Assembly (NCBI GenBank): GCA_964502365.1
Contig: CAZCWQ010000001.1
Coordinates: 8,053-72,052 of the forward strand
Reading direction: 5' to 3'
Source: an uncultured Desulfobacterales bacterium
GTDB lineage: Bacteria > Desulfobacterota > Desulfobacteria > Desulfobacterales > C00003060
Length of the DNA stretch: 64,000 bases
Part shown: positions 23,699 to 51,820 of the stretch, piece after piece
Layout of the letters: each line of letters opens with the position of its first letter
Numbering within the stretch: position 1 is the stretch's first letter
Position numbers and translations under genes: made by a program
The notes under the pieces: generated by a model
What the model was told of the DNA's origin: nothing
Databases searched by the model: none
What the model saw: only the letters and a program-made list of their open reading frames with translations

Positions 23699-23769
23699 AA
23701 ATCACCTATTTGCCCAAGGGCTTTTTGTTATTCATCAACCCTTAAATGCTTCGCAGTAATCAAGAGGAG

Positions 23770-23942: not shown

Positions 23943-23977
23943 GGTGAAATCACCGAACAGACCCGGTGAAATCACCG
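23943..23977. promoter_or_regulatory. tandem palindromic upstream activator-like sites
   Basis: GGTGAAATCACCG occurs at 23943-23955 and 23965-23977. Each is the inverted repeat GGTGA-N2-TCACC, and the centres are 22 bp apart. They lie between the two divergent sigma-54 candidates. Confidence 0.55.
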
Positions 23978-24062: not shown

Positions 24063-24078
24063 TGGCATGTAGATTGCT
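24063..24078 (+). promoter_or_regulatory. sigma-54 promoter for the NHL-omcS operon
   Basis: TGGCATGTAGATTGCT matches TGGCAC-N5-TTGCW at every conserved position except one. It lies 140 nt upstream of the NHL gene. Confidence 0.65.
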
Positions 24079-25201: not shown

Positions 25202-25415
25202 TCTCAAACAACAGAGGCGCATAATTCTAAAGAGTAAGGAGGTGATCACAAGTAAGAAGTGATTAGCGTTTTCAGGGTGACCTAATGGGTACGGGCGAAC
25301 CACGAAGAACAGAGGCACATTGATTCGAAAGATGCGGAGGGGATTAGAAACATAAAGTGAAGAGATGGAAGATGAAGGGTCACAAAATCAAACATGAAAA
25401 GGAGGAAACTGAAAA

Positions 25416-26600: not shown

Positions 26601-26626
26601 TCTAAACTGTCGTGTAACCCTATTTT

Positions 26627-26660
26627 AAGGCTGAGGGCCCATGCCCTCAGCCTTTTTTTT
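26627..26660 (+). terminator. strong rho-independent terminator after omcS-like gene
   Basis: AAGGCTGAGGGC-CCAT-GCCCTCAGCCTT forms a 12-bp perfect stem followed by T6-8. Confidence 0.85.
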
Positions 26661-26810
26661 GACGGATTGACACCTTTGTGCTTAAAGAGGACAGAAGGGC
26701 CCTGATATAACCACCCAACAGCCCAGAAAGATTGTTCATATGGCAAGTGCGTGATACATAGTGGCACCTCCATCAGAGTGGAAGTAGTCGCGTCATGTGA
26801 GGAACGGCCT

Positions 26811-28223: not shown

Positions 28224-28226
28224 CCG

Positions 28227-30401
28227 ATGAATGCGGTCCGTTCGCCAGCTGTGTGCCTGTTTTCGATTATCGTTATCTCCAGTGCCCTTTGGCCACCAAA
28301 CATTTGGGCCGAAGGGATCAACTTCCGTAGTGAATTCACCTACAGAGATTCCGACACCAAAACCACGAACAAGGTCACCGGCGAAGTGACCGAGAGTGAG
28401 TACTCAGCATTTAGGCAGTGGTACAACCTGGACCTATTCAGGACCATTTATCCCTACCTGACGTTAAGGGGCGGAAGCATTCTTGAGCTTAACGATTCTA
28501 TGTCCTCTTCTCAAGACACAGAAACCAAGACGGAGGAACAAACCCTTCGTCCATTCGCAGAAATCAACCTGAACAATCCGATTTACAAGGCTGGAATCGG
28601 ATACCGCGGGACCCAAATAGAAAGAGATACAACAGGGATTCCCACCACAAAGGACCTGAGAGACGAATTCAGTACCCTTTTCGGGTGGAGGCCTACGGAT
28701 TTCCCCGAGATGAACGTTCGCTATACCCATACCCATACTTATGACCATCCGGAGACCGTGGATACCATCGATAAACTGCTTACCTATGATGCCCGATATA
28801 CCGCATGGGAAGAACTTCGGATGAGCTATCTCTATATCCGAAATGAGAGACAAGAGCTTATCGACCCTTCCGAGACCTTGAGGCAAACGCATACCGGCAG
28901 GGTCGACTATTCACACAGTTTTTTCGGAAAACGCCTCTCTATGGGAACGGGTTACAGAATTCGTCATGACACTTTGGAGTTTCCCACATTGGCGACTTTG
29001 GAGTCTCCAGTGTTGCGCTCAGTAGGACTTTCGGCACTTGACGACACCCCCACCGACGGACCGGCCCTTGATCCAAATCTTGGCCTCATAGACGGGGATG
29101 TTGCCACGTCAGCCGGTCTGGATATCGGGTTGGCTGGCGATGAAACGACCCTGACAAACCTCGGGCTCGATTTTGGATTTCCCGTCTCTATGGATAAGCT
29201 GTATGTTTGGGTGAGCAGGCGTCTTTCCTCATCGGTCTCCAATGCTTTTTCCTGGTCTGTTTATACCAGCCCGGACAATACCGACGTGAGCACATGGTCG
29301 CTTGTGGCTACAGTTTCTCCTGCCTCGTTTGGGGCTCTTGACAATCGTTTTGAGATATCCGTTCCTGCGGTAAATACGCGCTTTATCAAGCTTGCAGTGA
29401 GGCCACTGTCTCCCATCGTGCCGGACGCTGCCAACTTTTCTAATATCTTTATTACAGAGATACAGGCGTTCAGCACGCAGTCAGGGGTGTCGTTGCAGAC
29501 GAAAGACACTACTGTGGACCACGACTACAACTTCAACCTGACGGGCAGGCTCAGCACGCACACCGTACTCGGCTATAATCTGTATTACAGCCTCCAGGAG
29601 CGGGACCCATCTGCTGAAAAAAGAACGCGCCTTTCTAATGACATCTTTCTTAAGCATACCTTCAACGAAATCTTTTCCGCCAGCACAAGTGTGTCACAAA
29701 CAGACACGAAGCTGACGGACCAGGAAACTCACACGTACACGTATGCCGCTTCGCTCAATGCCGACCATCTGGACACCTTCGGACAGACGCTGACGTACAG
29801 CGGCACGGATGAAACCCAAGACAATGATTCGGGCGATACGAATTCCGTCTTCCTTCGCAATAATGCAAAATTGTATAAGGGTTGGAGCGCCTTCTTCGAT
29901 GTGGGATACAGTTGGAACAAACCTTTGAACTCGGCCCGGACAACCTCCACAATCATAAGATCAGGGACAGACATAGAACCGAACGAAAAGCTTAACATCA
30001 ATATGAACTACTCCGTTACTGACACAAAACAAGCGGAGGAGGACGGGAGAGACACGTCCAGATCTTCACTGGATCTGCAAGCCTTCTTTCTGCCCTGTAC
30101 AACGTTGTCCCTTTTTGCCAGATTGAGCGTGCAGGACAGGGGGGGCTCCAGAACCACGCTGCAGGACTATTCCGTCAGCTGGTCACCTTTTCCTGACGGT
30201 ACCCTACAGTTTCTTCTCGGGTATACCGAGACCCTTAGGCCGGAGGACGAACAAAAGGACAGGACCATAAGCCCGAGTCTGAAATGGACCATAGGAAGGC
30301 ACATCCTCGCGGATATGTCCTACACCATTGCCACAAGCGAGACCGAGTTGCAGACAATCGATTCGAATAGTCTCAATATCAATGTGAAGCTCATTTTTTA
30401 G
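28227..30401 (+). CDS. predicted outer-membrane beta-barrel protein with internal discoidin (F5/8 type C)-like domain
   Basis: Signal peptide (...NIWAEG). Alternating-hydrophobic, Y/T/S-rich strands flank the insert, and the C-terminus is ...NINVKLIF with an aromatic last residue. The central ~150 aa reads GLIDGD...WSVYTSPDN...RFIKLAVRP...FITEIQAF. Confidence 0.6.
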   Translation: MNAVRSPAVCLFSIIVISSALWPPNIWAEGINFRSEFTYRDSDTKTTNKVTGEVTESEYSAFRQWYNLDLFRTIYPYLTLRGGSILELNDSMSSSQDTETKTEEQTLRPFAEINLNNPIYKAGIGYRGTQIERDTTGIPTTKDLRDEFSTLFGWRPTDFPEMNVRYTHTHTYDHPETVDTIDKLLTYDARYTAWEELRMSYLYIRNERQELIDPSETLRQTHTGRVDYSHSFFGKRLSMGTGYRIRHDTLEFPTLATLESPVLRSVGLSALDDTPTDGPALDPNLGLIDGDVATSAGLDIGLAGDETTLTNLGLDFGFPVSMDKLYVWVSRRLSSSVSNAFSWSVYTSPDNTDVSTWSLVATVSPASFGALDNRFEISVPAVNTRFIKLAVRPLSPIVPDAANFSNIFITEIQAFSTQSGVSLQTKDTTVDHDYNFNLTGRLSTHTVLGYNLYYSLQERDPSAEKRTRLSNDIFLKHTFNEIFSASTSVSQTDTKLTDQETHTYTYAASLNADHLDTFGQTLTYSGTDETQDNDSGDTNSVFLRNNAKLYKGWSAFFDVGYSWNKPLNSARTTSTIIRSGTDIEPNEKLNINMNYSVTDTKQAEEDGRDTSRSSLDLQAFFLPCTTLSLFARLSVQDRGGSRTTLQDYSVSWSPFPDGTLQFLLGYTETLRPEDEQKDRTISPSLKWTIGRHILADMSYTIATSETELQTIDSNSLNINVKLIF

Positions 30402-30592
30402 GTTACCGTGAAGGTCGTGACAAGTGGGCGCTCGAAACCGTCTGTGGCCGTTCCCAGACGACATCCGGTCCGTGGCAAGTGGGTTCGCAAGTTGACTGGC
30501 ATGGCCAAATGGTTTATATGGTGTTAAAAAGATAAGAGATTCACAGAAGACAAAATAGCGATACATCACCCTCTAAGGCAAGGAATTCTGCC

Positions 30593-31186
30593 ATGATTGG
30601 ATCGAAACGCGGTGTGAGTCTAATGAGATGTGTCTTGCCTTGCCTTTATCTTTCCTTGACCGCCTGTGCCGCCCCCCCTCCGCCCACCACGTATCATGAC
30701 CCGGATATGGATTTTGCGTCATTGCGCAGCGTTGCAGTCATGCCTTTTGAGAATCTCTCGCGAGACAAGCTTGCGGCGGAAAGGGTGCGAGACACCTTCA
30801 TTAACAACCTCTTGGCTACCACTTCGCTTTATGTCATCCCTCCCGGCGAGGTCGCACGGGGCAGCACAAGATTAGCGCTTGATAAGCCTGCTACGCCATC
30901 CGCGGAGGACATCTTAAAACTGGCCGTTATCATCAAGGCAGACGCTGTCATCACCGGCGTTGTCAGGGAGTACGGAGAGATAAGATCCGGGACCACATCT
31001 GCCAATGTTATATCCATCAGCGTGCAAATGTATGAGGTGCAAACGGGAACGGTGGTGTGGGCAGCATCGTCTTCGCAGGGCGGGATAAGCACATGGGATC
31101 GACTTTTTGGGGGCGGAGGCAAGCCGATGAACGATGTCACCGAAGCGGCTGTGGATGATATTATCAATAAACTCTTCAGCAAGTAA
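30593..31186 (+). CDS. CsgG/LpoB/DUF799-like lipoprotein
   Basis: Lipobox LSLTAC. SVAVMPFENLS...ADAVITGVV pattern is typical of the TolB-N/CsgG/LpoB-like fold family. Confidence 0.6.
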   Translation: MIGSKRGVSLMRCVLPCLYLSLTACAAPPPPTTYHDPDMDFASLRSVAVMPFENLSRDKLAAERVRDTFINNLLATTSLYVIPPGEVARGSTRLALDKPATPSAEDILKLAVIIKADAVITGVVREYGEIRSGTTSANVISISVQMYEVQTGTVVWAASSSQGGISTWDRLFGGGGKPMNDVTEAAVDDIINKLFSK

Positions 31187-32297
31187 ATATCTTATCACCC
31201 TTTTCACGGTTCTTATTATCCTCTGGGGTTGTGGAACGGTGAACGACCCTGTGAGAAGCGTGACGAGTGATTCCCCTGTGCATAGACCGCTCCGCGTGGC
31301 TTTTCTGCCGGTCGACAACCTTAGTGGAGGTCCTGCCCCCCTTAAGCATATCAGAGACTCCCTGTCAGACGGTTTCAAGAAACAAGGGATAACTCCCGTT
31401 GATGAGGCAGCACTTGAGAAATTTATTGCTGGGCACCGTGTCCGTTATGTAGGCGGTATGAACAGGGCCACCGCACAGGCCTTCCGAACAGAGATCTCTG
31501 CTGAAGCGGTCCTGATCACATCGCTGGAGCTCTATAGTGAGAGTGCTCCCCCCAGGATTGCTTTCACATGCAGATTGGTTTCTACGGCAGACGACACCGC
31601 AATTTTGTGGATGGATGGCATAGGGCTGGCAGGTGATGACTCTCCGGGAATTCTCGGTCTTTCTCTGATTGAAGATCCCCAGAGCCTTCTTGACGAGGCA
31701 GTGCGATACCTCGCCCTTTCTCTGTCGGCACATCTAGGAGACGGGGGCACGATGGCCACCCCCAAAAGAAGAGACAAATTTCAGCCGAAATTTTTTTACA
31801 GGTCCCCTGTGATGGCCACCGACAGACGTTACCGTGTGGCTGTCATGCCATTTTTCAATGTAAGTGAGAGAAAATACGCCGGCGAGATCATGGCCCTCCA
31901 CTTTGTCAAGGAACTCAGGCCACTCGAGAATTTTGCCGTTGTCGAGCCAGGTGTCGTAAGAGATACGCTGCTGGCACTCAGGGTCATCATGGACGATGGT
32001 CTATCCCTCGCCTACGCAGATCTCATTTTCGGCAGACTTAACGCCGATCTTATTCTTACGGGTAACGTACTGGATTATGAAGACTATCGTGGTCCCGCCG
32101 GGAAACCCAAGGTCGGTTTCTCAGCCATGCTGCTGGAGAAGAAGAGCCGGGAAGTGGTCTGGACCTGCCAGAATTATAATGAGGGGGACAACGGGGTCTT
32201 CTTCTTCGACCTAGGGAAGGTAAACACAGCCAACGCCATGGCATCCGAGATGGTACGTCTTGCCGTGGAAACAATGGCGAGGGAAGGCGGAAGGTGA
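31134..32297 (+). CDS. lipoprotein with two CsgG/LpoB/DUF799-like domains
   Basis: Lipobox ILWGC. Two copies of the same pattern (RVAFLPVDNLS... and RVAVMPFFNVS...ADLILTGNV). The start is uncertain (31134 or 31155) and overlaps the previous gene end. Confidence 0.6.
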   Translation: MSPKRLWMILSINSSASKYLITLFTVLIILWGCGTVNDPVRSVTSDSPVHRPLRVAFLPVDNLSGGPAPLKHIRDSLSDGFKKQGITPVDEAALEKFIAGHRVRYVGGMNRATAQAFRTEISAEAVLITSLELYSESAPPRIAFTCRLVSTADDTAILWMDGIGLAGDDSPGILGLSLIEDPQSLLDEAVRYLALSLSAHLGDGGTMATPKRRDKFQPKFFYRSPVMATDRRYRVAVMPFFNVSERKYAGEIMALHFVKELRPLENFAVVEPGVVRDTLLALRVIMDDGLSLAYADLIFGRLNADLILTGNVLDYEDYRGPAGKPKVGFSAMLLEKKSREVVWTCQNYNEGDNGVFFFDLGKVNTANAMASEMVRLAVETMAREGGR

Positions 32298-32306
32298 TAT
32301 TGGTAG

Positions 32307-33701
32307 CTAATCCAGGCCAAATTTTTTCAATTGGTATCTGAGACTGTCATAGCTTACGCCAAGAAGTTTTGCTGCCTGCGCCTTGTTGTTCCCGGTCCTT
32401 TCTAGAGCCTGAATGATGAGGTCCTTTTCCAATTCTTCCAGAGAGATCCCCGATTCAGGTAAAACAAAACGGTCGCTCGATGGTTGGACTGCTCCCATAG
32501 TACGTCCAAACATCCAGCTCGGCATTTGTTCAGGCTCGATTATTTCATTATCTTCCAGCACCACAAACCGCTCCACCAAATTTTTCAACTCCCTTACATT
32601 CCCCGGCCAGCCGTGAGCGCTCAGGACTTGCTCAGCGGCAGGTGAAAACCCTTTGATGGTTCTTTTGTTATACTTTGTGGCAAAATAAGAGAGGAAATGC
32701 CCGGCCAGTAGGGGTATGTCTTCTTTTCTCTCTCTGAGCGGAGGGATGTGGATATAGAATGGGCTCAGTCTGAAAAACAAGGCTTTCCGAAATTCGCCTT
32801 TTTCCACTGCCTCTGAGAGGTTTCTGCTTGTGCTAGCAATGGCTGTTAGGTCTACGGGGATTTCTTTGTTTCCGCCTATTCGTCTCACTGTCCTGTTTTC
32901 TAATATCCTTAACAATTTGCTTTGAAGCCCTGGTTGCATATCGCCTATCTCATCAAGGAGTATCACTCCTCCTTTGGCCTGCTCAAACAACCCCTTTTTG
33001 TCAGATTTAGCATCTGTAAAGGCACCCTTCTCGTGACCAAAGAGTTCGCTTTCCAAAAGTGTGGCAGGCATCGCTGCGCAATTGATTGAAACAAAGGGGG
33101 CATGATGTGATGGCGTACGGCCAAACATGAGATTGTGAATATATCGGGCAACGACTTCCTTGCCTGTTCCACTTTCTCCGGTAATGAGAATGGCAGATAC
33201 GTGGGCTTTAGCGATCTTTTGCACAGTCGCCTTTATTTCATGAATGGCCCCAGATTCGCCGATAAAATCCTTTTCTATGACCTCAGCATAGGCCTTCCTG
33301 AGATAGTTTACTTCTTGCCTAAGACTTTCTTTCTCGAGGACACTGTCCAAGACAATCTTGACCTCATCAGTATTAAAAGGCTTGGTGATATAGTCCACAG
33401 CCCCGAGCTTCATGGCTTTCACTGCGGTTTCTGCAGTTTCGTCAGCTGTCAGCATGACGACCTGAGTGTCGATAGGATTTTTCCCGCTCTTAATGTCTCG
33501 CAGGATATCTATGCCGTCTCGCCCAGGAAGGCTGATATCAAGCATAACCACATCCGGATCCCATGAGCTGATTCTATCAATGACATCGTTCGGATCAGAC
33601 TCTAAGTATATTTCGTAGCCCTCTTCCTTCAGTGCCTTCGATAGGACTGTGAGAATGAGCTCATCATCATCCAAAATAAACAATTTGCCCTTGCTTTTCA
33701 T
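32307..33701 (-). CDS. sigma-54-dependent response regulator (NtrC family)
   Basis: REC domain (DISLPGRDG), an AAA+ domain with GESGTGKE and the sigma-54 contact loop GAFTDA, and a C-terminal Fis-type HTH. It has an ATGA overlap with the upstream kinase gene. Confidence 0.9.
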   Translation of the reverse strand: MKSKGKLFILDDDELILTVLSKALKEEGYEIYLESDPNDVIDRISSWDPDVVMLDISLPGRDGIDILRDIKSGKNPIDTQVVMLTADETAETAVKAMKLGAVDYITKPFNTDEVKIVLDSVLEKESLRQEVNYLRKAYAEVIEKDFIGESGAIHEIKATVQKIAKAHVSAILITGESGTGKEVVARYIHNLMFGRTPSHHAPFVSINCAAMPATLLESELFGHEKGAFTDAKSDKKGLFEQAKGGVILLDEIGDMQPGLQSKLLRILENRTVRRIGGNKEIPVDLTAIASTSRNLSEAVEKGEFRKALFFRLSPFYIHIPPLRERKEDIPLLAGHFLSYFATKYNKRTIKGFSPAAEQVLSAHGWPGNVRELKNLVERFVVLEDNEIIEPEQMPSWMFGRTMGAVQPSSDRFVLPESGISLEELEKDLIIQALERTGNNKAQAAKLLGVSYDSLRYQLKKFGLD

Positions 33702-35908
33702 GCTAGCCGTTTGCTCTTGTACTGTTCCGCCTTCAACAAAATCGTAAAAAGGGTCCCCGTGCCTGGAGTGCTTTCAACGTGTATTTGGCCGCCCTGTTGT
33801 TCGATGAGGCGTTGGGTAATGGCCAGTCCCAACCCTGTGCCTTTTGCTTTGGTAGTAAAAAAGGGCTCGAACACCTTGTCCAAGGTCTGCTTGTCCATCC
33901 CGGTGCCGGTATCAGAGATTGTGATCCTTATGAAACCCTGCTTTTCATCATAACTGGTTCTAACGGTCAGGGTTCCGCCATTGGGCATGGCCTGGATTGC
34001 GTTAAGCATCAAGTTCAAGAAAGCCTGCTTAAGTTGCATGGGGTCAGCCAGGGTTTCAGGAAGATGCTCATCAAAATCCTTAGAAATATCTATTGCCGCC
34101 GTTACATTGGATAACAGGGAGGGGTCTTTGAGGCCAAAAGAAAGGATTTTGTCAATAATGTCATTTAAATCCACGGCCATGAGCTGAGGTTTAGGGGGCC
34201 TGGCAAAATCGAGTAGACTCCTTATCAATGATTCGATACGTCCAATCTCGTCGACCGCCTTTGATGCAATGGCCCGGTCTTCCTCAGAGATATTTGGTTC
34301 CTCTCTAAGAACCTGGACTGATACCTTGATGCCTGCAAGGGGATTCTTGATTTCATGAGCCAGTCCTGCGGCCCATTCTCCGACCAATTTCATCTGTTCC
34401 GCTCTCTGCAAAGTCTCTTGTACCCTCTTGCGTTCCGTGATGTCCCGAACCACGTGAATCAGACCTGTCATCTCTTTCTTGCTGTCAAACCGAGGCATGG
34501 CCCTCACCTCGAAATATTTGTCAAAGTGGGGCTCAAAGAATTCAAAAGACGCGGGCTCCTTAGTTTTGAAGCATTCACAGGTGGGACAATTTTCCGGTGG
34601 ACAGTCCTTCCCGTGGAAATAGGCATAGCATTTTGCCTTGACCACGTCCAGAGGTGGTAGTGCCAGAAACTCCTTTGCCGCCCTGTTGGCGTGAATGATG
34701 TTGAATTCTTTGTCGTGGACAGTAATCATGTCTCGAATAGTGTCAAATGTCTCTTCCCAGTCATTCTTGGCTTGAAGGATCTCGTTTTCTATTTTTTTTC
34801 GAGCAGAGATGTCTCTGTCAATGGCTAGGATGTATTTACGACCCATATATGTCAGGAGCCCAGCACTAGCCTCAACAGGAAACACTGTGCCATCTTTTTT
34901 TCTGTGGGGGATTTCTGCCTTGATCCACTCACCGCTCAAGATACGCTTGATACGCTCTGGCGCTTCTTTTGCAGCATCAAGCGTATCTAAATCGTTTACC
35001 AAATTGAGATTGAGCAACTCCTGCATGCTATATCCATGCATTTCTGCCGCCGCAGGGTTAGCGTCCACGATGTCGCCGCGCTTTTCCCCCTCAGCCTCTG
35101 CAATAAATATGGCATCCCCGGCGCCTTCGAAAAGCAGTCTGTAACGCTTTTCGGTTTCCACAACTTTGCGGATATGCTCTTTCAGCGAAGTAGCCATGTT
35201 ATTGAACGATGCTGCTACTTCTCCAAATTCATCTTTTAGGCCTTCAATTCTATGATCAAGATCACCGGCCCTTAACTTCCGTGTCGCCCTCAGTAGCGCA
35301 CTAAGCGGTTTTGTCAGGGTCGCCATAAAGAAAAAAACAAAAACCACGGCGGCAATGGGACCCGCGATCACTAGAACATAGATCAATGTTTTTGAATCAG
35401 CCACACTCTGAAGGGCATTTTGCGTTTCATCCGCCAGCCTGAGCGCTGCTTTATGGACCATCGTGTTGACGTCTGCTATGGCCTGTTCGGCCATACTGAA
35501 GGCCTCGTTTTCTTCCTCAGCCATCCTATCACGATTTGCCCGAAGCGTGAGTACCCTGTTCAATGCATCCTTGTATAGCCCAATTTGGCTTTCCAAATCC
35601 GTTAGGCGCTTGAGTACAGTTTCAGAGTGGTGACAGTCAAAACAGGACTTTACGACGTCGTCCATGCTCTTGACATTCTTGACAATAGTGCCAAGGTCTC
35701 GCCTGTGATGCGTCCCAATTAGCGCAAGGTCAGACTGGACACTTCTGAGATTAATCAACAGATGCTCCCTGAGTATTTCCACCTGATGAAGCATGATGAG
35801 ATGATCGAGTTGAGACGTAGCGGTTTGAATGGTGGCAATGATGTAGATGCCTCCTCCCACGAAAATGATGGAAAAGGCGCCCAGTGCCAGAAGTATCTTT
35901 TTTTTCAT
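33698..35908 (-). CDS. sensor histidine kinase with periplasmic CXXCH-containing helical domain, HAMP and PAS domains
   Basis: TM1 is aa 5-25 and TM2 about aa 176-197. CFDCH at aa 89-93 (nt 35630-35644) lies between the TMs. Then HAMP, two PAS-like regions (one with CPPENCPTCEC), H-box LAHEIKNPLAGI and GTGLGLAI. Confidence 0.85.
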   Translation of the reverse strand: MKKKILLALGAFSIIFVGGGIYIIATIQTATSQLDHLIMLHQVEILREHLLINLRSVQSDLALIGTHHRRDLGTIVKNVKSMDDVVKSCFDCHHSETVLKRLTDLESQIGLYKDALNRVLTLRANRDRMAEEENEAFSMAEQAIADVNTMVHKAALRLADETQNALQSVADSKTLIYVLVIAGPIAAVVFVFFFMATLTKPLSALLRATRKLRAGDLDHRIEGLKDEFGEVAASFNNMATSLKEHIRKVVETEKRYRLLFEGAGDAIFIAEAEGEKRGDIVDANPAAAEMHGYSMQELLNLNLVNDLDTLDAAKEAPERIKRILSGEWIKAEIPHRKKDGTVFPVEASAGLLTYMGRKYILAIDRDISARKKIENEILQAKNDWEETFDTIRDMITVHDKEFNIIHANRAAKEFLALPPLDVVKAKCYAYFHGKDCPPENCPTCECFKTKEPASFEFFEPHFDKYFEVRAMPRFDSKKEMTGLIHVVRDITERKRVQETLQRAEQMKLVGEWAAGLAHEIKNPLAGIKVSVQVLREEPNISEEDRAIASKAVDEIGRIESLIRSLLDFARPPKPQLMAVDLNDIIDKILSFGLKDPSLLSNVTAAIDISKDFDEHLPETLADPMQLKQAFLNLMLNAIQAMPNGGTLTVRTSYDEKQGFIRITISDTGTGMDKQTLDKVFEPFFTTKAKGTGLGLAITQRLIEQQGGQIHVESTPGTGTLFTILLKAEQYKSKRLA

Positions 35909-36888
35909 TAATCGTTCACGTAATCGTAGGTTGCCAGATCCAGTCCCACTTCTTGTGCATAACGGTAAACATTTTCGTAGTCTTTGTCCGTTGTCTCGAT
36001 AAATCTTTTCGCACCAAAGGCTTTTAGGACCTCCATCCCATCATGGTCATCATGCATGCTGGTCAGGGAATCCTTGAGCCTGGATTTAATCGAAGGGTCC
36101 AGGTCTGGCCGAACAGCCAAACCATTCTCCGGCACGTCAGGAGACCTTGCAAGCACAACCAATTCGTTTCTTACCCTGCTTTCTATATTAGACAGATGGT
36201 AGTATATAGTATTTTTTGCGGCGCCCACATCTGCCAGTTTGTTCAAAACGTCATGGATGGCGTTTTCATGCGTACCTGCAAAATAGGTTTCCTTGAAATA
36301 GGTCTTGTAATCTGCAATTCCGTGGGTCTTGAAATATGCAAGGGGAAGGAGATAGCCGGCTGTCGTGGCCTTGTCCACAAAGGCAAAAGTCTTTCCCCGC
36401 ATGTCCTTTGCGTCTTTGATGCCGCTGTCCTTTCTAACAAACAGGAGCCCATAGTACGTAGAACGGCCATCAGCAGTCTCAGGACGTGCAAGGGGTTCAA
36501 CACCTAATCTTGCATGGGCCAATGTGTAGGTGAAGCTCCCGAAGAATGCACCGTCCATTTTTGAAGCGACAAAATTCTCAATGATATTCCCGTACCGTGT
36601 CAGTACCTTCAGTTTAATATGCATTCCCATCTTTTTTGAAAGATAGTCGGATAGAGGCTCATATCGTTCAAGCTGTTCGAAGATATTGCGCTCAGGAATA
36701 AGCCCTATCACGAGAGAGTCTCCCTCCCGACTGGACGGCTTCACATTATCTTCTGCCCATATGTCAGTGCAGCTAACTGATATGGCCATCCAAAGCACCA
36801 TCGACAGGAGAATACTGCCCAGGCGCAACAAAGTCAGTTTTGAGGCACCGTTATGAAGTGAGACAGTGTTTTTCCCGGACGCAACCAT
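35908..36888 (-). CDS. PhnD/SsuA-like periplasmic substrate-binding protein
   Basis: Signal/TM segment followed by a type-2 periplasmic-binding fold pattern. Its TAA overlaps the kinase ATG (TAATG). Confidence 0.65.
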   Translation of the reverse strand: MVASGKNTVSLHNGASKLTLLRLGSILLSMVLWMAISVSCTDIWAEDNVKPSSREGDSLVIGLIPERNIFEQLERYEPLSDYLSKKMGMHIKLKVLTRYGNIIENFVASKMDGAFFGSFTYTLAHARLGVEPLARPETADGRSTYYGLLFVRKDSGIKDAKDMRGKTFAFVDKATTAGYLLPLAYFKTHGIADYKTYFKETYFAGTHENAIHDVLNKLADVGAAKNTIYYHLSNIESRVRNELVVLARSPDVPENGLAVRPDLDPSIKSRLKDSLTSMHDDHDGMEVLKAFGAKRFIETTDKDYENVYRYAQEVGLDLATYDYVND

Positions 36889-38090: not shown

Positions 38091-38891
38091 TTACTGTTTA
38101 TTAGATTGGGTATCGCCGAATCGAAAGTCAATGACAGAGGGCAGGTAGAACGTATCGTATTTCTCTAGCATCCCAGTGACTTCTGTGGAAACCAGATGAT
38201 GAATACGATTTTCACTAAAGCCGAGTTGCGCAAAAGGGAGATAGCCCTCCTGTTTGTGACAATCAGTACAAAACACGGGCTTCTTTGATATGCCTGTGTG
38301 CAGTTCGACTTTTGCCTGAGCAACTTGATCAGCGGTATATTTGTCCTTGACTTCCAAGTATTGTTGCGCCGCTTTTTGGGTGATTGGCCTGAAAACGGTT
38401 TTTTCTCCACTGTCGGACACTGTTATTGGAAAGAGCTTGGCCGGGTATTTGCCGAATGCCCCTTTAACAGAAGAACTGACCTGCCCAGTTTCACGATCGA
38501 CCCAGGCAAAGGAAAAGTTGTTTTCCATAGAATCTTTCCTGACGTGGCAGACGGCACAAGCAATGAATCCGGTATGGAAATTCAGAAGGGACCGAACCTT
38601 TTTTTCTTTGCTATGAGGGTATGTCCCGTGACAAGTCAGACAAAGTGGCGGGTTTTGTTCAGGTTGTGTGACATAGTCGTCAACCATATGGAAATGACCG
38701 CGAGAAATGGTCCCTTTTTCTGTAAGGATTTCTCTGAAAACGTTTTCTCCTTTGGGACGTTCTGATATCCTAAAAGATTTTTTGGCAACAGCTTGGGGAA
38801 AGTAAACAACCCGAAGAAGCCAAAGGCCAAATGAGATAAAGACGACGATCAAAAGGGCTTTTATCAACTTTTTAATTCCACTAGCCATCAT
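38091..38891 (-). CDS. membrane-anchored triheme c-type cytochrome (Cbc-like operon, third gene)
   Basis: N-terminal TM helix with CLTCH, CAVCH and CTDCH. It is a paralog of the C-terminal two thirds of 41225-42169. Confidence 0.8.
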   Translation of the reverse strand: MMASGIKKLIKALLIVVFISFGLWLLRVVYFPQAVAKKSFRISERPKGENVFREILTEKGTISRGHFHMVDDYVTQPEQNPPLCLTCHGTYPHSKEKKVRSLLNFHTGFIACAVCHVRKDSMENNFSFAWVDRETGQVSSSVKGAFGKYPAKLFPITVSDSGEKTVFRPITQKAAQQYLEVKDKYTADQVAQAKVELHTGISKKPVFCTDCHKQEGYLPFAQLGFSENRIHHLVSTEVTGMLEKYDTFYLPSVIDFRFGDTQSNKQ

Positions 38892-38918: not shown

Positions 38919-39674
38919 TCACTGGCCTTCCTGGATGATGTAAGTTTCCTGAAGTCTTGGATCAGACATGATCTTTTTATAGTGCAATGGGTGTTCTTCC
39001 TTCATAGTTTCTTCATCGATTACGCCATCTATCCAAACATTACTGAAGAGTTTGTACGGCCTCAAGTGGACTTCATACAAATGCCATATCATGATGGCCA
39101 GACAAGCCAGCACAGCTTCCATACCATGGATAATCGTGGCAAGATCGACTAAGAACCTGTTCCACAGAAATTCAGTCCACAGCATCAGACCAGTTATCGT
39201 CATGAGCGTATTGCCAAGAATAAGAGCCCCGTACTCCATCTTTTGCTTATAAGAGAAGCGGTCATATTGCGGGGGGGTTTTCTTAACACCAACGTAGAAG
39301 AGCATCGTGCTAATCATGTCTGTTAAATCCTTAGGTCTTGGGATCATATCCATGAGCCAACGACGCCCGGCCTTTTTAAACAACAGATAATAAAGATGGT
39401 ATAAACTGGTCAGCATCATAATGACGGCAGCAACCCGGTGTAAAATACCTCGATAATAGAACACAGGCTCCCGGGCTTCTCCAAGCATCTTGACTACTGT
39501 GGGTTCTGGGAGTTCCAACATGAGCCCAGTGATGGCCAGCACAATAAAACATGACACAAAGACAATGTGCTGTACTCTCTCTGCATAGGTTAGACGAACA
39601 AAATACCTTTTGGGTATACCTGAGCCCTTATCATAACTAGGAATATCTTTTAGCGTTACAACCTGTTCTGCCAT
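38919..39674 (-). CDS. membrane b-type cytochrome (FdnI/PhsC/Ni-hydrogenase cytochrome b family)
   Basis: About 5 TM helices with conserved His residues in TM helices (ERVQHIVF, LHRVAAVIM...YHLYY, IIHGMEAV...WHLYEVH). Confidence 0.75.
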   Translation of the reverse strand: MAEQVVTLKDIPSYDKGSGIPKRYFVRLTYAERVQHIVFVSCFIVLAITGLMLELPEPTVVKMLGEAREPVFYYRGILHRVAAVIMMLTSLYHLYYLLFKKAGRRWLMDMIPRPKDLTDMISTMLFYVGVKKTPPQYDRFSYKQKMEYGALILGNTLMTITGLMLWTEFLWNRFLVDLATIIHGMEAVLACLAIMIWHLYEVHLRPYKLFSNVWIDGVIDEETMKEEHPLHYKKIMSDPRLQETYIIQEGQ

Positions 39675-39702: not shown

Positions 39703-40863
39703 CTAATGCCCACTTTTGTGATTGCGTTTGGTTCGATAATAGTCCAGCATCTGGTGTAGTGACATAGATCCTATCACCAAGGCTATCAACACCTTATAAA
39801 AAAGTCTTACGAGGGTAAGTATCTTTTCCTGAAACACGTTTTTGTTGGAGATGCCGATTTCAGCTTGCCTCTTTGACTGCCAGGCTTTGTAGTTGACCTG
39901 AATGATATCTTTTCCGGCATAGGGCGCAACCGGCCCATTCATCCCAAACGCATGCTCTCTGCCAGCCACAAACTCCGCATCGGCATTGGGATGACATATC
40001 TGAACGCCTCCCTGGTGACGACAAGTATTTATTCTATTGGCAGGATTGACCGGCGAACGAGGGTCTGACGTGGTAAGGATATCATGTTTGGCATAGCCTA
40101 TGGGTACGTGACAATTCAGGCAATCCGGGGCGTTTTGAACGCCATATTTGATCTGAACCCAATGAAAGGTATCCCTGAAGGTCCCGACTGTTCTCAGGCC
40201 ATGTCGGGCCATCATTTGTGGATCTTCATGACAACTTAAACACAATTCCACGATCTCTGCCTGGCTCCTTCTCCTCCTCATACGGTGCGAAACATGCGAA
40301 TAGAATCGGTCTGCCCACTGTTGCTCCGTGTGGCAGCCAAAGCATCTGCCCAGTGCCTCATTGGCCAAAGGAGACCCCTCGCTCCACATAGTGCCACTAG
40401 GGTTGAGGATTCGATTATCGTGACAATACTTGCACGTCGGTAAGTCTTTGACATAGTTTTTGGGGCTCTTGGGTGTTCCAGTTCCGTGAGCGCTTGCTTC
40501 ATGTATCTTTAGAACCTTCAGGTGTGAGAATTGCTGTTTGCTGGACGGCTCTTCTGTGTGACATTTTGTGGCACAATCCACCTTCTTGACGTCGGTGTGA
40601 GGTATCTTGTCGAGGCCGACGTGACAGTCTTTGCATTTGAGCGTTCCATGCACCGACTCCGCAAACATCTTGTCGTTCAGATAGAATACCCTCTTGTTAC
40701 CATCTTCGTCATACCGTCCAATATGAGGATATCGGTGACACAACAGGCAATTCTCCGTGTCAGGGACCAGATCAATGGCTGCAAAGGCGACCCTAAAAGG
40801 AAGAACCAGAAAAAATACCATTATAAGAAACGCTATCACTGGTATCGAGCTGTCATTTCTCAT
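39703..40863 (-). CDS. membrane-anchored multiheme c-type cytochrome (6 CXXCH plus CX3CH), Cbc-like operon first gene
   Basis: Motifs are CLLCH, CKDCH, CKYCH, CFGCH, CLSCH and CLNCH, plus CATKCH. It has N- and C-terminal TM segments. I prefer the ATG at 40863 (MRNDSSIPVIAFLIMVFF...) over the TTG at 40944, which abuts a promoter-like site. Confidence 0.8.
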   Translation of the reverse strand: MRNDSSIPVIAFLIMVFFLVLPFRVAFAAIDLVPDTENCLLCHRYPHIGRYDEDGNKRVFYLNDKMFAESVHGTLKCKDCHVGLDKIPHTDVKKVDCATKCHTEEPSSKQQFSHLKVLKIHEASAHGTGTPKSPKNYVKDLPTCKYCHDNRILNPSGTMWSEGSPLANEALGRCFGCHTEQQWADRFYSHVSHRMRRRRSQAEIVELCLSCHEDPQMMARHGLRTVGTFRDTFHWVQIKYGVQNAPDCLNCHVPIGYAKHDILTTSDPRSPVNPANRINTCRHQGGVQICHPNADAEFVAGREHAFGMNGPVAPYAGKDIIQVNYKAWQSKRQAEIGISNKNVFQEKILTLVRLFYKVLIALVIGSMSLHQMLDYYRTKRNHKSGH

Positions 40864-40940
40864 GGATTCTATCTTTGTCCCAACTTCGCCTTTTTCCCAA
40901 GGCTGGATGGCCGAGTAATTGCTAGTAGTATCGTTTATAA

Positions 40941-40955
40941 TCAATGTCTGTGCCA
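40941..40955 (-). promoter_or_regulatory. candidate sigma-54-type promoter for the Cbc-like operon
   Basis: The reverse complement reads TGGCACAGACATTGA. The -24 box is perfect, but the -12 box is TTGA instead of TTGC. Confidence 0.4.
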
Positions 40956-41025
40956 GAATATTCCTATACGCCTGGACACATGGAAATCCAATGGGTTACA
41001 TGATTTAAGCTGTCTTCTTGAATGA

Positions 41026-41077
41026 TGAAATCAAAGAAATTTTGGTCAAAACACCATATGAAATCGGTCATTTCACC
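41026..41077. promoter_or_regulatory. cluster of TGAAATC-type sites related to the 23.9 kb palindromes
   Basis: TGAAATC occurs at 41026-41032 and 41059-41065. GGTCATTTCACC at 41066-41077 has reverse complement GGTGAAATGACC, an 11/12 match to GGTGAAATCACC. Confidence 0.35.
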
Positions 41078-41224
41078 ACACGGTCTATGACTTTTTCCTT
41101 ACACCCTGTGCCGTTGACAAATTGACAGAACTGGCCCATGATACTCAAATAATTCTGAACTATACACAAGACCAAGGCAAACCCGCAGGCCTTATGTTGG
41201 TTAAGAGGTCTCGTTTTTTGAAGA

Positions 41225-47196: not shown

Positions 47197-47406
47197 AGGG
47201 TTCTCGTATGTCACGCTAAACCGGACTTGCCAATTTCACCCCGCTGTGATTTACATCCAAAATATTAACAATTCGCCGAATACATTGGTTGGCTACTTAT
47301 GTCACAATATCGGGGACAGGAGGCAACCCCAACATTTTGCAGTATTTCTTTAGTTTCATGAAACAAAAGTCCTGTGTCGGTTAATCTTCATCAATCTAAA
47401 GGTATA

Positions 47407-47733
47407 ATGAAATCTAAGCCCTTATACGAAGAAATCACTAAGGCAAGAAAGATATTAGAGTTGCCCGAGTCAGCCACAATGCAAGAAATAACAGGACATT
47501 ATAAAAAGTTAATGACAAAATGGCATCCCGACAAATGTCGGGAGAAAAAAGGAATCTATGAACAAAAGGCAAAGGAAATTAACGATGCATATGAAATAAT
47601 TATGAGCTATTGCAATAACTATGACTTTTCGTTTTCAAAAGAAGAAGTGGAAAAACATATCACAGAGAGGGAATGGTGGTTCAAACGTTTTGGGAAGGAC
47701 CCCATATGGGGGAATTACAGTGATAAACCATGA
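47407..47733 (+). CDS. J-domain (DnaJ-like) protein
   Basis: HPD motif within KKLMTKWHPDK. ATG 47407 lies 5 nt after AAAGG; an alternative GTG start is at 47374. Confidence 0.7.
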   Translation: MKSKPLYEEITKARKILELPESATMQEITGHYKKLMTKWHPDKCREKKGIYEQKAKEINDAYEIIMSYCNNYDFSFSKEEVEKHITEREWWFKRFGKDPIWGNYSDKP

Positions 47734-47801
47734 ATCGTGAACCAGCTCTCCGAAAAGCCATATTTCCATACAGTGCAGGTATCGCCTAGCAAAAAACACA
47801 A

Positions 47802-47860
47802 CTCTCTGCAATAGCCCAACCTTTTGAAATCCCGAAAGTTTTGTGATATTCTAAACAAAA
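47802..47860 (+). repeat. promoter-bearing intergenic repeat, copy A
   Basis: CTCTCTGCAAT..CCAACC..TTGAAA(47824-47829)-17 bp-TATTCT(47847-47852), with TG at the extended -10 position. Confidence 0.7.
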
Positions 47861-47934
47861 TTTTAGATTACCTAGTTTTGGACGGGCTCCTTACCTGCCG
47901 GGACAGGCCACGGTAGCTCACAAACATAAGCCAG

Positions 47935-48306
47935 ATGGTCTATCGCACCCTCGCAGATTTTGCCTTAATCGTTCACTTTGCATTTGTCGTCTTTGCGGTC
48001 TTTGGAGCATTCTTGGTGGTTAGATGGCACTGGCTGGTTTGGATGCATGTCCCATTGGCTCTCTGGGCTGCTGTAATGGAAATTACCGGCTGGTTTTGCC
48101 CTCTCACTCATCTTGAGTACTGGCTGCGTACCAAGAGCGTAATGACTGTGCAGGACATGGGGTTTGTGGAACAGTACCTCCTCCCTTTGCTTTATCCCAC
48201 AGGACTCACACGATGGTTGCAGGTTGTTCTTGGCGCCATTGTTCTCGGTATGAACGGCCTAATTTATTCGTGGGTACTATGGCGTCACCTCAGGGTTAGG
48301 ACCTGA
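47935..48306 (+). CDS. DUF2784-like membrane protein
   Basis: 123 aa with 3-4 TM helices. The motif ...GWFCPLT.LE.WLR is as I recall for DUF2784. Confidence 0.6.
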   Translation: MVYRTLADFALIVHFAFVVFAVFGAFLVVRWHWLVWMHVPLALWAAVMEITGWFCPLTHLEYWLRTKSVMTVQDMGFVEQYLLPLLYPTGLTRWLQVVLGAIVLGMNGLIYSWVLWRHLRVRT

Positions 48307-48587
48307 CCACCTTCAGCACTGGGATCCGTCCGCTACGATGTGACTTATTGAGACCACGCTTGGAACCCAACGATTATTCCAGCACAGCAACGGCAAGTAA
48401 GTGCTGCTTTCCAAGGCAGCAGCGGCGGTTTCGTTCTGGATCGATGAACGAGACCAAGTCCAACTGGCGGAAAGGCTGAGTCATGTGCCATAGACTTCTT
48501 GGTTGTGTTAGTTTTGGTAATTTGCGATTATTTGAGCCGGGCCAGAGTTATCCAAACGTCATGAGCAAATGAAAACAGGAGGGTAAT

Positions 48588-48857
48588 ATGAAACTGAACG
48601 TCAAAGCCCTAGTGTTGACGGCAGGCATTATCTGGGCAGGGACCGTTTTAGCGGTCGGTGTCGCAAACCTAATTTGGTCTGGGTACGGCACCATGTTCTT
48701 ACAGGTGGTAGCTTCGATCTATCCTGGTTATGATGCCACCCGTTCCATAGGTGCCGTGATAGTTGGAACTTTGTATGCCCTTGTTGATGGTGCCATTTTG
48801 GGATTGGTTTTGGGCGGGCTTTACAACTTGTTTGTGAGCAAGGGAAGCCCCGTCTAA
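48588..48857 (+). CDS. small membrane protein (3 predicted TM helices)
   Basis: Strong RBS (AGGAGGG). 89 aa, Gly/Ala-rich and hydrophobic. Confidence 0.55.
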   Translation: MKLNVKALVLTAGIIWAGTVLAVGVANLIWSGYGTMFLQVVASIYPGYDATRSIGAVIVGTLYALVDGAILGLVLGGLYNLFVSKGSPV

Positions 48858-48879
48858 ACACGTAACAATCAGAAAGCGT

Positions 48880-49345
48880 AGCCATTTGTGATATTACACT
48901 GCAATCACCAAGGATACACTCATCTGACTTCTCAAATATCTTGGCTCTGCGGTTTTCCACCACCGGTCAAGTCACTACGCCTTCCCTCGGCAATGCCCTT
49001 TTCAACAAACGCTCTATACCTTCGACGCGCAATCCATTGCCTATGATCGATACCCATTCAATAGCCTACCAATCCCTGTCCACCTTTCCCATAAGAGCGC
49101 TATGGCCAGTATACGGGTGTTTATCCAATGCCTTTATATCCCTTACAGTCCTGGCACGAATCGGATTCAGGTGAATGTGGCGTATGAGCTCCAAAAGATA
49201 GAGGTCTTCCTGGCATAAAATCGACTTGTATCTATTTTAAAAAGGATGCCCGCTGCGGCGGTGACGCCTGTTATAAGGAACCGCATATCCGGTCAACAGC
49301 CGCCTCATCACCGTAGCAATCGGCACATCACCTCTGTGGATGTGT
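48880..49345 (-). pseudogene. degraded Y1 (HUH) transposase, RAYT/IS200-like
   Basis: The minus-strand translation gives ...MRRLLTGYAVPYNRRHRRSGHPF*NRYKSILCQEDLYLLELIRHIHLNPIRA...DW*A... followed by a frameshift before RRSDLTGGG. The HUH-containing N-terminal part is missing. Confidence 0.7.
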
Positions 49346-49850
49346 GGAACTTTTCTGCATAAGAGTGATTTGTATTGCACATTATTGCCGTCATTAGAAT
49401 GAAAGCTACCAGACGTGTTATCGCATCCAATGCAAGTTAACTATTTAACATCGCTAGTATATTATTCCAAACGTACATGTTGGCATGGTTCTTGATACTA
49501 AGAATAAACAGAGCAATTAACGACACCCCTCTGGACAAGAGAAAGGATCTTAAAATGCGTAGCAAGAGTCATCTCAGCAGTCCAGAAATAATAAGCCAGA
49601 AGGGGCCGTCTCATTTCTTACTCCTGTACGTCATTGGTGGGGTCTTGGAGAAATAGGGCGGCAGCGTGAAAATAGACCGAGACACCAACGCGGTCGCCTT
49701 GAGCATTCCACAGAAAAAAAGGACTGCTTGCTGTGAAGAGTTAGAGGGAGTGATAGACGTCATAAAGCCGTTCATTCGTCTTCTCCCTTCCCACGATTGA
49801 TTCTTGCATTTGAAAAAGGCTCAATGGCCCTCCTTTGAAGTGAGGTTCCT

Positions 49851-50081
49851 ATGGAACCAAATGCAAGTCCTCTTTGTAAGTCGGGTGATAGAAATGCTTT
49901 GTGTCCTTATTATGACGCTTGTTTGGATCACGCTGTGAAACATCGTTGGCAATGTTGGAACTGCTCCGTCTGCCCTCACAGACTAAAGAAACAGTGCCTG
50001 AGCGACGCGCCAATTGTTAAAGATCCAAACCCCGAATATCATATTGCCTCAGAAATCCTACGACAGTTGGCTTCATCCTAA
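49851..50081 (+). CDS. small Cys-rich hypothetical protein
   Basis: 76 aa with GTGAGG 5 nt upstream of the start. Cys pattern is C...C.YY..C.......W.CW.C..C. No family recognised. Confidence 0.35.
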   Translation: MEPNASPLCKSGDRNALCPYYDACLDHAVKHRWQCWNCSVCPHRLKKQCLSDAPIVKDPNPEYHIASEILRQLASS

Positions 50082-50437
50082 ACTCTCAAACCCTTTACTC
50101 GTTCAAGTCTATGCTACAGGTCCTCTAGTACGTTCGCCCATCCTTTCCTGCCTTTTGGCTGTTGACATTATATCTGTCAGCCTGTTACCAGATCATAGCC
50201 TCGCATTCCAGCGCTCTTCACGCCTATAATGAAAAGCAGATTGGGTTTAACTGGATCGAGGGTTTCACTCAAGCCCCTCCTTTGTCAAGTGTGTAATTTT
50301 TTTCAGTCCAAGAGATATTCTTTTCACATTTTCGCTATGGCTTTTACCCTGAATTTTGCCTAACTAAATGGAAATATAGAGATACTCCGCTTGGCCTAGT
50401 TCTTGCTCATTCTAACTTTAAAAGGCATTGCTCAGCG

Positions 50438-50620
50438 TCATTGCTTTTCATTAGGGTCGGGGAGCATTCCTTCCTTATTATGATACCTTGGTGGGAACAG
50501 CTTAACTACTTCAGAAGGCTCCCCGGCCTTTCTTCCCTTCTTGTGGTATGAAACAAGAACGCCCATGGCGCGTCCAGCCTCAAAAGGAAGCCCCCGGCCC
50601 TTACGGGTACCGGACATCAT
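50438..50620 (-). CDS. hypothetical protein
   Basis: 60-aa basic ORF directly downstream of 50637-50951. No homology recognised. Confidence 0.2.
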   Translation of the reverse strand: MMSGTRKGRGLPFEAGRAMGVLVSYHKKGRKAGEPSEVVKLFPPRYHNKEGMLPDPNEKQ

Positions 50621-50636
50621 TCACGCACATGAATAG

Positions 50637-50951
50637 TTATGAACGCCCCTTTTTGTCTGTGACCGGAATCCCTCCAAGGCCACAATAGCCATAGTCTTCA
50701 TTCTTGTCCTTGTCAGGGTTAAGCCAACGCCAAAGCATACAATTCCGTCCGAGACAAAGTTCAATCCCAGGTTCCAGCATCTGTTGCTGCATTTGTTTCG
50801 CAATTAGCTTCACCGGACAGACTAGGCTTCCAACGCTGTTATGTTGAACGATCATAACAATACCTCCTTTTCCATCTCTTCTTAGGGCATGTCGCCGGAC
50901 GAGGCATATTCCGCCCTCTTTCTTAGCTGTAACACCCGCATCTAACCGCAT
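50637..50951 (-). CDS. hypothetical protein
   Basis: 104-aa ORF, possibly starting at an internal Met. No homology recognised. Confidence 0.25.
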   Translation of the reverse strand: MRLDAGVTAKKEGGICLVRRHALRRDGKGGIVMIVQHNSVGSLVCPVKLIAKQMQQQMLEPGIELCLGRNCMLWRWLNPDKDKNEDYGYCGLGGIPVTDKKGRS

Positions 50952-51066
50952 CTGACCCGCTAAGGCCAGTATTTTCCGCCCACAGAACGGGGGATCTCCT
51001 GCACCTCCATACCCCTGTGTATCCCTTTAGCAGAAATCGTGGATTCTGGGGGCGGTTTTCATAGAG

Positions 51067-51345
51067 TTAGTCAACTTCTTTGTCCGTGTCCAAACATTGA
51101 CGGTAACAGTCCTGCAATTTCCGATTGCACTCATCCTTACAGCTCCAGCGATCATCCTGATAACCTCTAAAATACTTCCTCCTCGGCATCTTTTCGCATG
51201 TTGAGGTACACAACGAGTGCCGGGATTGGCAGTTCTTAATACAATCCCGCTGTTCTTGTGTCCTAACGTGCCGGGTTGGCTGTGCCGACTGGGCTGCACA
51301 GCCAACAAAAAGAGCCAACAGTGTTAGAATTGCCAGTTTTCTCAT
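51067..51345 (-). CDS. small Cys-rich lipoprotein
   Basis: Signal peptide with lipobox LFVGC. The mature part has 8 Cys residues (CIKNC, CTSTC, CKDEC, CYRQC). Confidence 0.55.
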   Translation of the reverse strand: MRKLAILTLLALFVGCAAQSAQPTRHVRTQEQRDCIKNCQSRHSLCTSTCEKMPRRKYFRGYQDDRWSCKDECNRKLQDCYRQCLDTDKEVD

Positions 51346-51820
51346 GTCCCCCTCACTTTGTTTGCCTTAGGATTTGAAGCAATATAACACTATATGCAAA
51401 GCCCCCACACCAGAAATGCTAATGCATGGGCATGTGCAAAACGCCTAAGACCTATCCCAGCACAGGCTTGCCTGCTCTTGCCTTGTGCTCTCCTCTTGAC
51501 TCTTGCGCCACAATCGGCTAAAGAAAACGCATACTTGCAGTACCGCTGTTCCATTTCTTAAACCAACCATATACACAGGAAGTCATATGAACCTCAAGAT
51601 GTGCCTGCCTAGTTCGTGACAGTCGTCGTAAGTGCTGTTGGGAGTATAATCTTTGGATAAAACCAAATTCATCTACCAGGCAGATGCCATGAACTGAATA
51701 TCACGAACCCGTTTCTCACAGGAAGAAGTGGGCTTTTGAGTTTCATTTGAGATCATACCTTTTTGCAGAGTGTAATGGTGGCAAGAAATCTCCTATCAGA
51801 CAAAGATTCAAATTTAAGCG

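Follow-up and report, generated by a model that had tools for sequence, protein, structure and literature searches.

In the enteric NtrC-glnAp2 system, a phosphorylated regulator with a receiver (REC) domain, an AAA+ domain and a Fis-type helix-turn-helix (HTH) acts by face-dependent looping after binding as dimers to a pair of palindromes that lie over 100 bp upstream of a sigma-54 promoter; AtoC acts on atoDAEB from sites, tandem or inverted, at about -100 to -150. Detailed knowledge of how extracellular electron transfer is regulated is confined to a few cultured strains of Geobacter and Shewanella. In Geobacter sulfurreducens, the cbcBA genes (operon GSU0597-0593) have a sigma-54 promoter that needs the REC-sigma54-HTH regulator BccR (GSU0598), and encode a seven-haem cytochrome c with a C-terminal anchor (CbcA) and a di-haem cytochrome b (CbcB) (Joshi, Chan and Bond, bioRxiv 10.1101/2021.04.15.440034). 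In work on syntrophic sulfate reducers, CbcBA is discussed but its regulation is left aside. For Desulfovibrio vulgaris Hildenborough, a study of its sigma-54 regulome depicts a lineage rich in enhancer-binding proteins, gives the promoter consensus as tGGcacg/tTGCt, and presents enhancers at least 100 bp upstream as the norm for this class of activator (PMC4641369). Here we analyze a stretch of 64,000 nucleotides from an uncultured Desulfobacterales bacterium (contig CAZCWQ010000001.1, positions 8,053 to 72,052; hereafter the window), and in particular a sigma-54-type motif at 40955-40940 on the minus strand together with the sequences upstream of it. We consider it likely that this element is a sigma-54 (RpoN)-dependent promoter of a three-gene, Cbc-like cytochrome operon, controlled by an enhancer of a type held in common with a second operon of the window, which encodes a homologue of OmcS, the nanowire cytochrome of Geobacter.

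The layout of the locus, with paired palindromes far upstream and a REC-AAA+-HTH regulator, is that of NtrC-glnAp2. The sites themselves are different (GGTGA-WW-TCACC vs. TGCACC-N5-GGTGCA), as are their spacing (22 bp vs. ~32 bp) and their targets, which are respiratory cytochromes rather than nitrogen assimilation genes. The candidate activator shares its domain architecture with AtoC, from which it differs by a GAFTDA loop and another regulon; its best NCBIfam match is NF008469 (AtoC) at 420 bits, below the 714-bit equivalog cut-off, and it is therefore not an AtoC orthologue. Like Geobacter cbcBA, the window operon encodes a C-terminally anchored multihaem cytochrome c followed by a PF01292-type cytochrome b behind a -24/-12 promoter and, like BccR, the regulator is of the REC-sigma54-HTH type and encoded nearby. 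Unlike Geobacter cbcBA, the operon starts with the cytochrome genes, without leading hypothetical or response-regulator genes; the regulator is encoded ~6 kb away in a binding-protein/kinase/regulator operon and not divergently as bccR is; and, in contrast to Geobacter cbcBA as described, the enhancer would also serve the OmcS operon and the -12 box reads TTGA. 'CbcBA-like' is used here as an architectural label, the window genes being set beside GSU0593, GSU0594 and GSU0598 by description only. The original prediction, made from the sequence alone, had stated that Geobacter cbcBA is sigma-54 dependent, which agrees with the accessible part of the cbcBA report, where no BccR binding site is mentioned (bioRxiv 10.1101/2021.04.15.440034). 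The locus also resembles the Desulfovibrio vulgaris regulome in having an enhancer far upstream of a -24/-12 promoter and a candidate activator with a GAFTDA loop; neither a cytochrome bc or OmcS regulon nor a GGTGAAATCACC operator appears in the accessible text on that regulome (PMC4641369). A literature search for the operator sequence returned unrelated primer matches only; the operator, of which we found no earlier report, is now defined. The type of regulation is already known; what differs from the Geobacter system, besides the gene layout, is the placing of an OmcS operon under the same enhancer, the operator sequence and the conserved A at -12.

The promoter motif, TGGCACAGACATTGAT, lies at 40940-40955 on the minus strand, in the context ggaatattcTGGCACAGACATTGATtataaac. 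It had been pointed out as TGGCACAGACATTGA (40955-40941), with a perfect -24 box and an imperfect -12 box, and this is what the sequence contains. The -24 box TGGCAC covers 40955-40950, with the invariant GG present and G(-24) at 40953, and the -12 box TTGA covers 40944-40941, with an A at 40941 where the consensus has C; the 10-bp spacing after the GG and the T, T and G are correct. Matches to the sigma-54 consensus TGGCAC-N5-TTGCW across the whole window numbered 5 with at most one mismatch (2.85 +/- 1.66 expected, not significant alone) and 34 with two mismatches (38 expected). Bare consensus counting was dropped as proof of a promoter because match numbers are at chance level. A position weight matrix built from 22 enhancer-linked promoters, all from other genomes, was then used to scan both strands of the window. 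The 40955 site ranked first (20.1 bits) and the motif at 24063 second (17.3 bits), with the next match at 12.9 bits; none of 20 shuffles reached 20.1 bits. It is the context, that is the palindrome pair, the conservation and the matrix score, and not the bare match, that makes the 40955 promoter convincing. The boxes are invariant in the three closest relatives and a phased enhancer lies upstream, both of which support the original sigma-54 reading; very probably, then, this motif is a genuine sigma-54 promoter and is served by an enhancer with two binding sites for an activator. By the sigma-54 numbering convention, the predicted transcription start lies 12 nt past position -12, at about 40929, which gives a putative 5′ leader of ~66 nt (40864-40929, minus strand).

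Two 12-bp palindromes lie upstream of the promoter on the minus strand, 22 bp apart. The distal one, GGTGAAATGACC (41066-41077), is centred 118.5 nt upstream of G(-24), or at about -142 from the predicted start, and is kept at 10-11 of 12 positions in close relatives. The proximal one, GGTGTTTTGACC (41044-41055), is centred 96.5 nt upstream of G(-24), or at about -120, and is kept at 8-11 of 12 positions in relatives, which have GGTGTTTTCACC or GGTGAAATCACC there. The original prediction had singled out GGTCATTTCACC (41066-41077, plus strand), whose reverse complement is indeed identical to GGTGAAATCACC at 11 of 12 positions, and it had proposed TGAAATC at 41026 and 41059 (plus strand) as related half-sites. 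The distal palindrome is real; the second real site, GGTCAAAACACC at 41044-41055, had been missed. Both TGAAATC sequences are present, but neither is conserved as a half-site. The one at 41059 falls in the 10-bp spacer between the palindromes, which is not conserved across lineages. The one at 41026 may at most form the core of a degenerate third site, TTTGATTTCATC (41024-41035, minus strand), which matches GGTGATTTCACC at 9 of 12 positions. Its distance to the proximal palindrome is 20 bp instead of 22 bp, and one close relative lacks it (L064; the comparison loci are referred to by L numbers). Three-site enhancers do occur in L017, L027 and L041. Matches within two mismatches of GGTGAAATCACC numbered 14 in the window, compared to 6.8 expected.

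The same arrangement is found at 24 kb. Two perfect GGTGAAATCACC sites, beginning at 23943 and 23965 on the plus strand and again 22 bp apart (23943-23976), are centred at distances of 116.5 and 94.5 nt to G(-24) in a second sigma-54 promoter, TGGCATGTAGATTGCT (24063-24078, plus strand), which heads the operon running from 24218 to 32297. The second gene of this operon (25416-26600, plus strand) encodes an OmcS homologue with six CXXCH motifs that aligns with PDB 6EF8 (OmcS) over its full length (E = 8.2e-63; query residues 26-394, chain residues 1-407). The 40955 and 24063 promoters thus have in common the palindrome pair, the 22-bp spacing and a similar distance to the -24 element (96.5 vs. 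94.5 nt). This common geometry supports the original suggestion that one activator coordinates the quinol oxidase with the omcS operons, and a single signal would therefore switch on a quinol/cytochrome module of the inner membrane together with a module of extracellular cytochromes, tying the two to each other. The OmcS-homologue operon also encodes NHL and beta-propeller proteins and a 724-aa protein without any Pfam match. A further sigma-54-type motif, TGGTATGGTAATTGCCT (23768-23784, minus strand), is found on the opposite side of the 23.9-kb enhancer, ~60 nt (predicted leader) upstream of the gene (23336-23698) for a single-domain response regulator of 120 aa. Identical copies of this 17-mer are present in more than 25 other loci; there they face cyt314-NHL-multihaem operons and lie at 167-173 nt from the centre of the enhancer.

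To place these elements in a wider context, we used loci from a genome scan based on alignments of the cytochrome; it yielded 62 loci with identities of 57% or less, nearly all of them from Desulfobacterales-type metagenome-assembled genomes. With a composite pattern of GGTGAAATCACC-N10-GGTCATTTCACC, at least 19 of whose 24 positions had to match, 30 enhancers were found in these loci, the close relatives and the window (67 loci); by our estimate, ~0.005 composite matches of at least 20/24 would be expected by chance in 847 kb. An outward-pointing sigma-54-like motif (TGGCAC-N5-TTGC-like, at least 8/10 with the GG required) was located at 92-126 nt from 29 of the 30 (per-site chance 0.036; binomial P 3e-41, a value inflated by the relatedness of the loci). 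An independent metagenome scan using the enhancer pattern alone, with no promoter information, returned 56 contigs, 54 of which had a sigma-54 motif at 89-125 nt. The distances in this second set cluster at 91-95, 102-106, 116-119 and 125 nt, and those from the proximal palindrome to G(-24) in 31 promoters fall into classes of 85.5, 94.5-97.5 and 115.5-117.5 nt. Such steps of one helical turn are as expected for a looping enhancer. A 34-bp enhancer with a -24/-12 element 85-126 nt away should make the regulon predictable from metagenomes.

Gene maps revealed two conserved modules, cbcA-cytb-cyt266 and cyt314-NHL-20-haem cytochrome, which are either divergent around the enhancer, as in the window, or co-linear behind it. 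One relative of 64% identity, L065, has neither enhancer nor promoter in its 367 nt upstream, and probably has a different operon layout. In nine loci (L003, L014, L016, L023, L027, L029, L031, L050 and L053, at about 5100-7950), a paralogous cbcA'-cytb'-cyt266' triple of 30-40% identity sits between the enhancer and the orthologous triple, so that the promoter lies ~3.2 kb upstream of the orthologue.

The TTGA form of the -12 box was followed in the same sets of loci. In L063, L064 and L067, the three closest relatives (proteins 84-90% identical), CTGGCA and TTGAT are invariant, while the 6-nt promoter spacer changes at up to 4 of 6 positions (2 of 6 kept in L064), the flanks are down to ~51-60% identity and the enhancer-promoter stretch is kept at only 45 of 88 positions in L064. 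Among the enhancer-linked promoters, a TTGA box in the form TGGCAT-N5-TTGATA was also present in 11 of the 23 taken from genomes and in 14 of the 64 taken from metagenomes (~25 in total), and the -12 base across enhancer-linked promoters is C or A only. Since TTGA is fixed in relatives whose neighbouring sequences drift, and recurs in other lineages, its departure from TTGC is not, as judged from these comparisons, the result of decay. The ~40 paired TTGC and TTGA promoters with the same enhancer constitute a natural set for testing the contribution of the -12 cytosine to sigma-54 promoter control. A special tie between the GAFTDA loop of the regulator and the TTGA box was considered and rejected: the same regulator family accompanies TTGC promoters too, and functional activators with a GAFTDA loop are known.

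The first gene of the operon (39703-40863, minus strand) encodes a CbcA-like, membrane-anchored multihaem cytochrome c of 386 aa. It has six CXXCH motifs plus a conserved CX3CH and a conserved CX8CH, making 7-8 sites, an N-terminal signal or anchor and a hydrophobic C-terminal transmembrane helix. The gene for a CbcB-like cytochrome b of 251 aa follows 28 nt downstream (38919-39674, minus strand; PF01292 at 52 bits, cut-off 30.1), and the third gene (38091-38891, minus strand) encodes a 266-aa c-type cytochrome with three CXXCH motifs. The order cbcA-cytb-cyt266 is kept in dozens of loci. The open reading frame (ORF) track starts the first gene at TTG 40944, which had been described as abutting the promoter; in fact this codon overlaps it, being the TTG of the -12 box itself (40944-40942). 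The alternative start put forward in the original prediction, ATG 40863, fares much better. Nearly all of 120 listed homologues are ~385 aa long and most aligned ones begin at the Met of ATG 40863 (M28), the exact 386-aa product is already on record, and the upstream frame contains stop codons in L064 and L067, two of the three close relatives. On these sequence grounds we take ATG 40863 to be the true start, and the 413-aa ORF to be an artefact starting inside the promoter. The gene start is corrected accordingly; the predicted leader of ~66 nt is close to the ~70 nt first suggested.

The candidate activator is an NtrC-family response regulator of 464 aa, encoded at 32307-33701 on the minus strand, with REC, Sigma54_activat AAA+ and HTH_8 domains (PF00072, 89 bits; PF00158, 207 bits; PF02954, 59 bits). 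Its gene forms one operon with those of a HAMP/PAS histidine kinase (33698-35908, minus strand) and a PhnD-like periplasmic binding protein (35908-36888, minus strand), the likely cognate sensor components, and this operon is located between the two target operons. The binding-protein/kinase/regulator order is also found in L017, L027, L029, L053 and L069-L071, and regulator orthologues (57-74% identity) adjoin the same cytochrome clusters in L017, L027, L029, L070 and L071; their recognition helix, ISYDSLRYQ, is identical or near-identical. The association holds in both directions. All three contigs picked only for a regulator orthologue (66-71% identity) have an enhancer with a sigma-54 motif 103-105 nt away, and in two of them, as in the window, target operons of both types flank the regulator; 12 of the 56 enhancer-selected contigs encode an orthologue with the same recognition helix. 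Because of this reciprocal co-occurrence and the conserved synteny, the assignment of the regulator to the enhancer is a well-supported inference. For uncultured Desulfobacterales of marine and estuarine settings, these elements together offer an operator of defined sequence and a model of the promoter, as well as a candidate two-component system.

Two further arrangements of regulatory genes were observed. In L070 (2885-11389) and L071 (2734-11389), kinase and regulator genes directly follow the cyt-NHL-multihaem genes, downstream of an enhancer-linked TGGTATGGTAATTGCCT promoter, which suggests positive autoregulation in these two loci. In L077, L084, L108 and L121, another enhancer-binding protein is encoded ~2 kb downstream of enhancer-linked TTGATA promoters; it is 43-46% identical to that of the window and has a canonical GAFTGA loop and a different HTH, hinting at a regulatory cascade.

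The sequences display conserved motifs at fixed, helically phased distances that co-occur with the regulator gene. From these we propose the following mechanism, whose binding events, dependence on sigma-54, site of transcription start, regulator and signal are predictions. Sigma-54 RNA polymerase would wait in a closed complex on TGGCAC-N5-TTGA, while dimers of an NtrC-family enhancer-binding protein occupy both 12-bp palindromes, which are of the GGTGA-WW-TCACC type and centred at about -120 and -142. The likeliest binder is the response regulator encoded at 32307-33701, presumably phosphorylated by the adjacent PAS histidine kinase. Once bound, the protein would assemble an ATPase ring, loop to the promoter and drive open complex formation at the expense of ATP, transcription then proceeding from about 40929 and translation from ATG 40863. 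The same enhancer geometry would drive the OmcS-containing operon at 24 kb. A bolder proposal, which we regard as possible but rather doubtful, is that the enhancer pair and sigma-54 promoter are the operator of a BccR-like master switch for the whole extracellular-electron-transfer kit in many uncultured sediment Desulfobacterales. The kit would tentatively include the Cbc-type module, the cyt314-NHL-20-haem operons and the OmcS operon, together with the single-domain response regulator; some genomes would add the kinase/regulator genes themselves. Under the same speculative proposal, the promoters with a conserved A at -12 (the TTGATA class) would form a subclass with a mechanism of its own; a weaker lock at the fork junction, for instance, could give them a basal or induced behaviour other than that of TTGC promoters with the same activator.

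Several observations weigh against the sigma-54/enhancer interpretation of the 40955 region. Many of the comparison loci are akin, so that the counts overstate independence, and both 40955 palindromes are degenerate (10-11/12 to the consensus), with better copies in close relatives. The ribosome-binding site before ATG 40863 is weak. No site resembling that of integration host factor (IHF; within one mismatch) was found between the enhancer and the 40955 promoter, and its involvement here is therefore unsupported; across loci, such sites occur between enhancer and promoter in 10 of 28, vs. ~4 expected. The -12 box lacks the C of the Desulfovibrio consensus tTGCt (PMC4641369), and our literature search found no experimental precedent for an A at this position. 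One might thus suppose that TGGCAC-N5-TTGA, in departing from the consensus TTGC, is a decayed or very weak sigma-54 promoter, one-mismatch matches occurring ~3 times per window by chance, and that real expression comes from a sigma-70-type promoter such as TTGACC-16-CATCAT at 41049-41022, a 9/12 match that overlaps the enhancer on the correct strand. We consider this very unlikely. A decaying site would not be held as TTGA is, both in the three relatives and in the ~25 promoters of other lineages with only C or A at -12, and the sigma-70-like match is weak, with 1.3 such matches expected in this 900-bp region. Even less plausible, to our minds, is that the palindromes are operators of a conventional repressor or sigma-70 activator and that the nearness of TGGCAC is incidental. 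As a simple palindrome, GGTGA-NN-TCACC could accommodate the dimers of many helix-turn-helix proteins, but 83 of 86 palindrome pairs lie 89-126 nt from a sigma-54 motif at distances stepped by one helical turn, and their position is well upstream of the range of a repressor; this pattern is the signature of a looping enhancer.

Other points bear on which protein binds. The L1 loop of the candidate regulator, which contacts sigma-54, reads GAFTDA instead of GAFTGA, which also weighs against its proposed role. Among its 120 closest homologues (66-100% identity), however, the loop is G[SA]FTDA with the exception of two one-offs, FSFTDA and GSYTDA, and because of this near universality we view the substitution as a fixed family trait; GAFTDA is also among the variants reported to retain activity in Desulfovibrio vulgaris enhancer-binding proteins, e.g. 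DVU2106 (PMC4641369). Also against the candidate, the regulator gene is ~6 kb from the Cbc-like operon and ~8 kb from the other target, being divergent from neither and not adjacent as bccR is, and no such enhancer precedes its own operon in the window. The enhancer and promoter could therefore be real and the palindromes be bound by another enhancer-binding protein encoded elsewhere, an explanation made more attractive by the unrelated activator (43% identity, GAFTGA) found 2 kb downstream of TTGATA promoters in L077, L084, L108 and L121, which ties more than one activator to the network. We nevertheless judge it improbable: regulator-selected contigs carry the enhancer and enhancer-selected contigs the orthologue, and synteny with both target operon types persists down to 57-66% identity. 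No other sigma-54 interaction domain was noticed among the annotated ORFs of the window, where a GAFTGA-type regular expression found no match, yet also missed GAFTDA. Control of both operons by the regulator encoded at 32307-33701 thus remains our preferred reading.

Some additional features of the window deserve mention. No intrinsic terminator was found after the Cbc-like operon, and neither Rfam families nor tandem repeats were detected anywhere in the window, including a region of ~4.6 kb (47200-51800) that contains only short ORFs (<125 aa). On the other side of the enhancer, a divergent sigma-54 promoter was looked for in front of the cyt314 gene at 41225 and none was found; the divergent cyt314-NHL-20-haem operon of the window lineage is thus without the sigma-54 promoter present elsewhere. 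Upstream of 41225, a block at 41105-41145 (plus strand) is kept in L063, L064 and L067 at 34-35 of 41 positions. With TTGACA-17-CATGAT inside it, and with TGTCAAtttGTCAAC as a direct repeat on its minus strand, the block may be a sigma-70 promoter or the site of another regulator.

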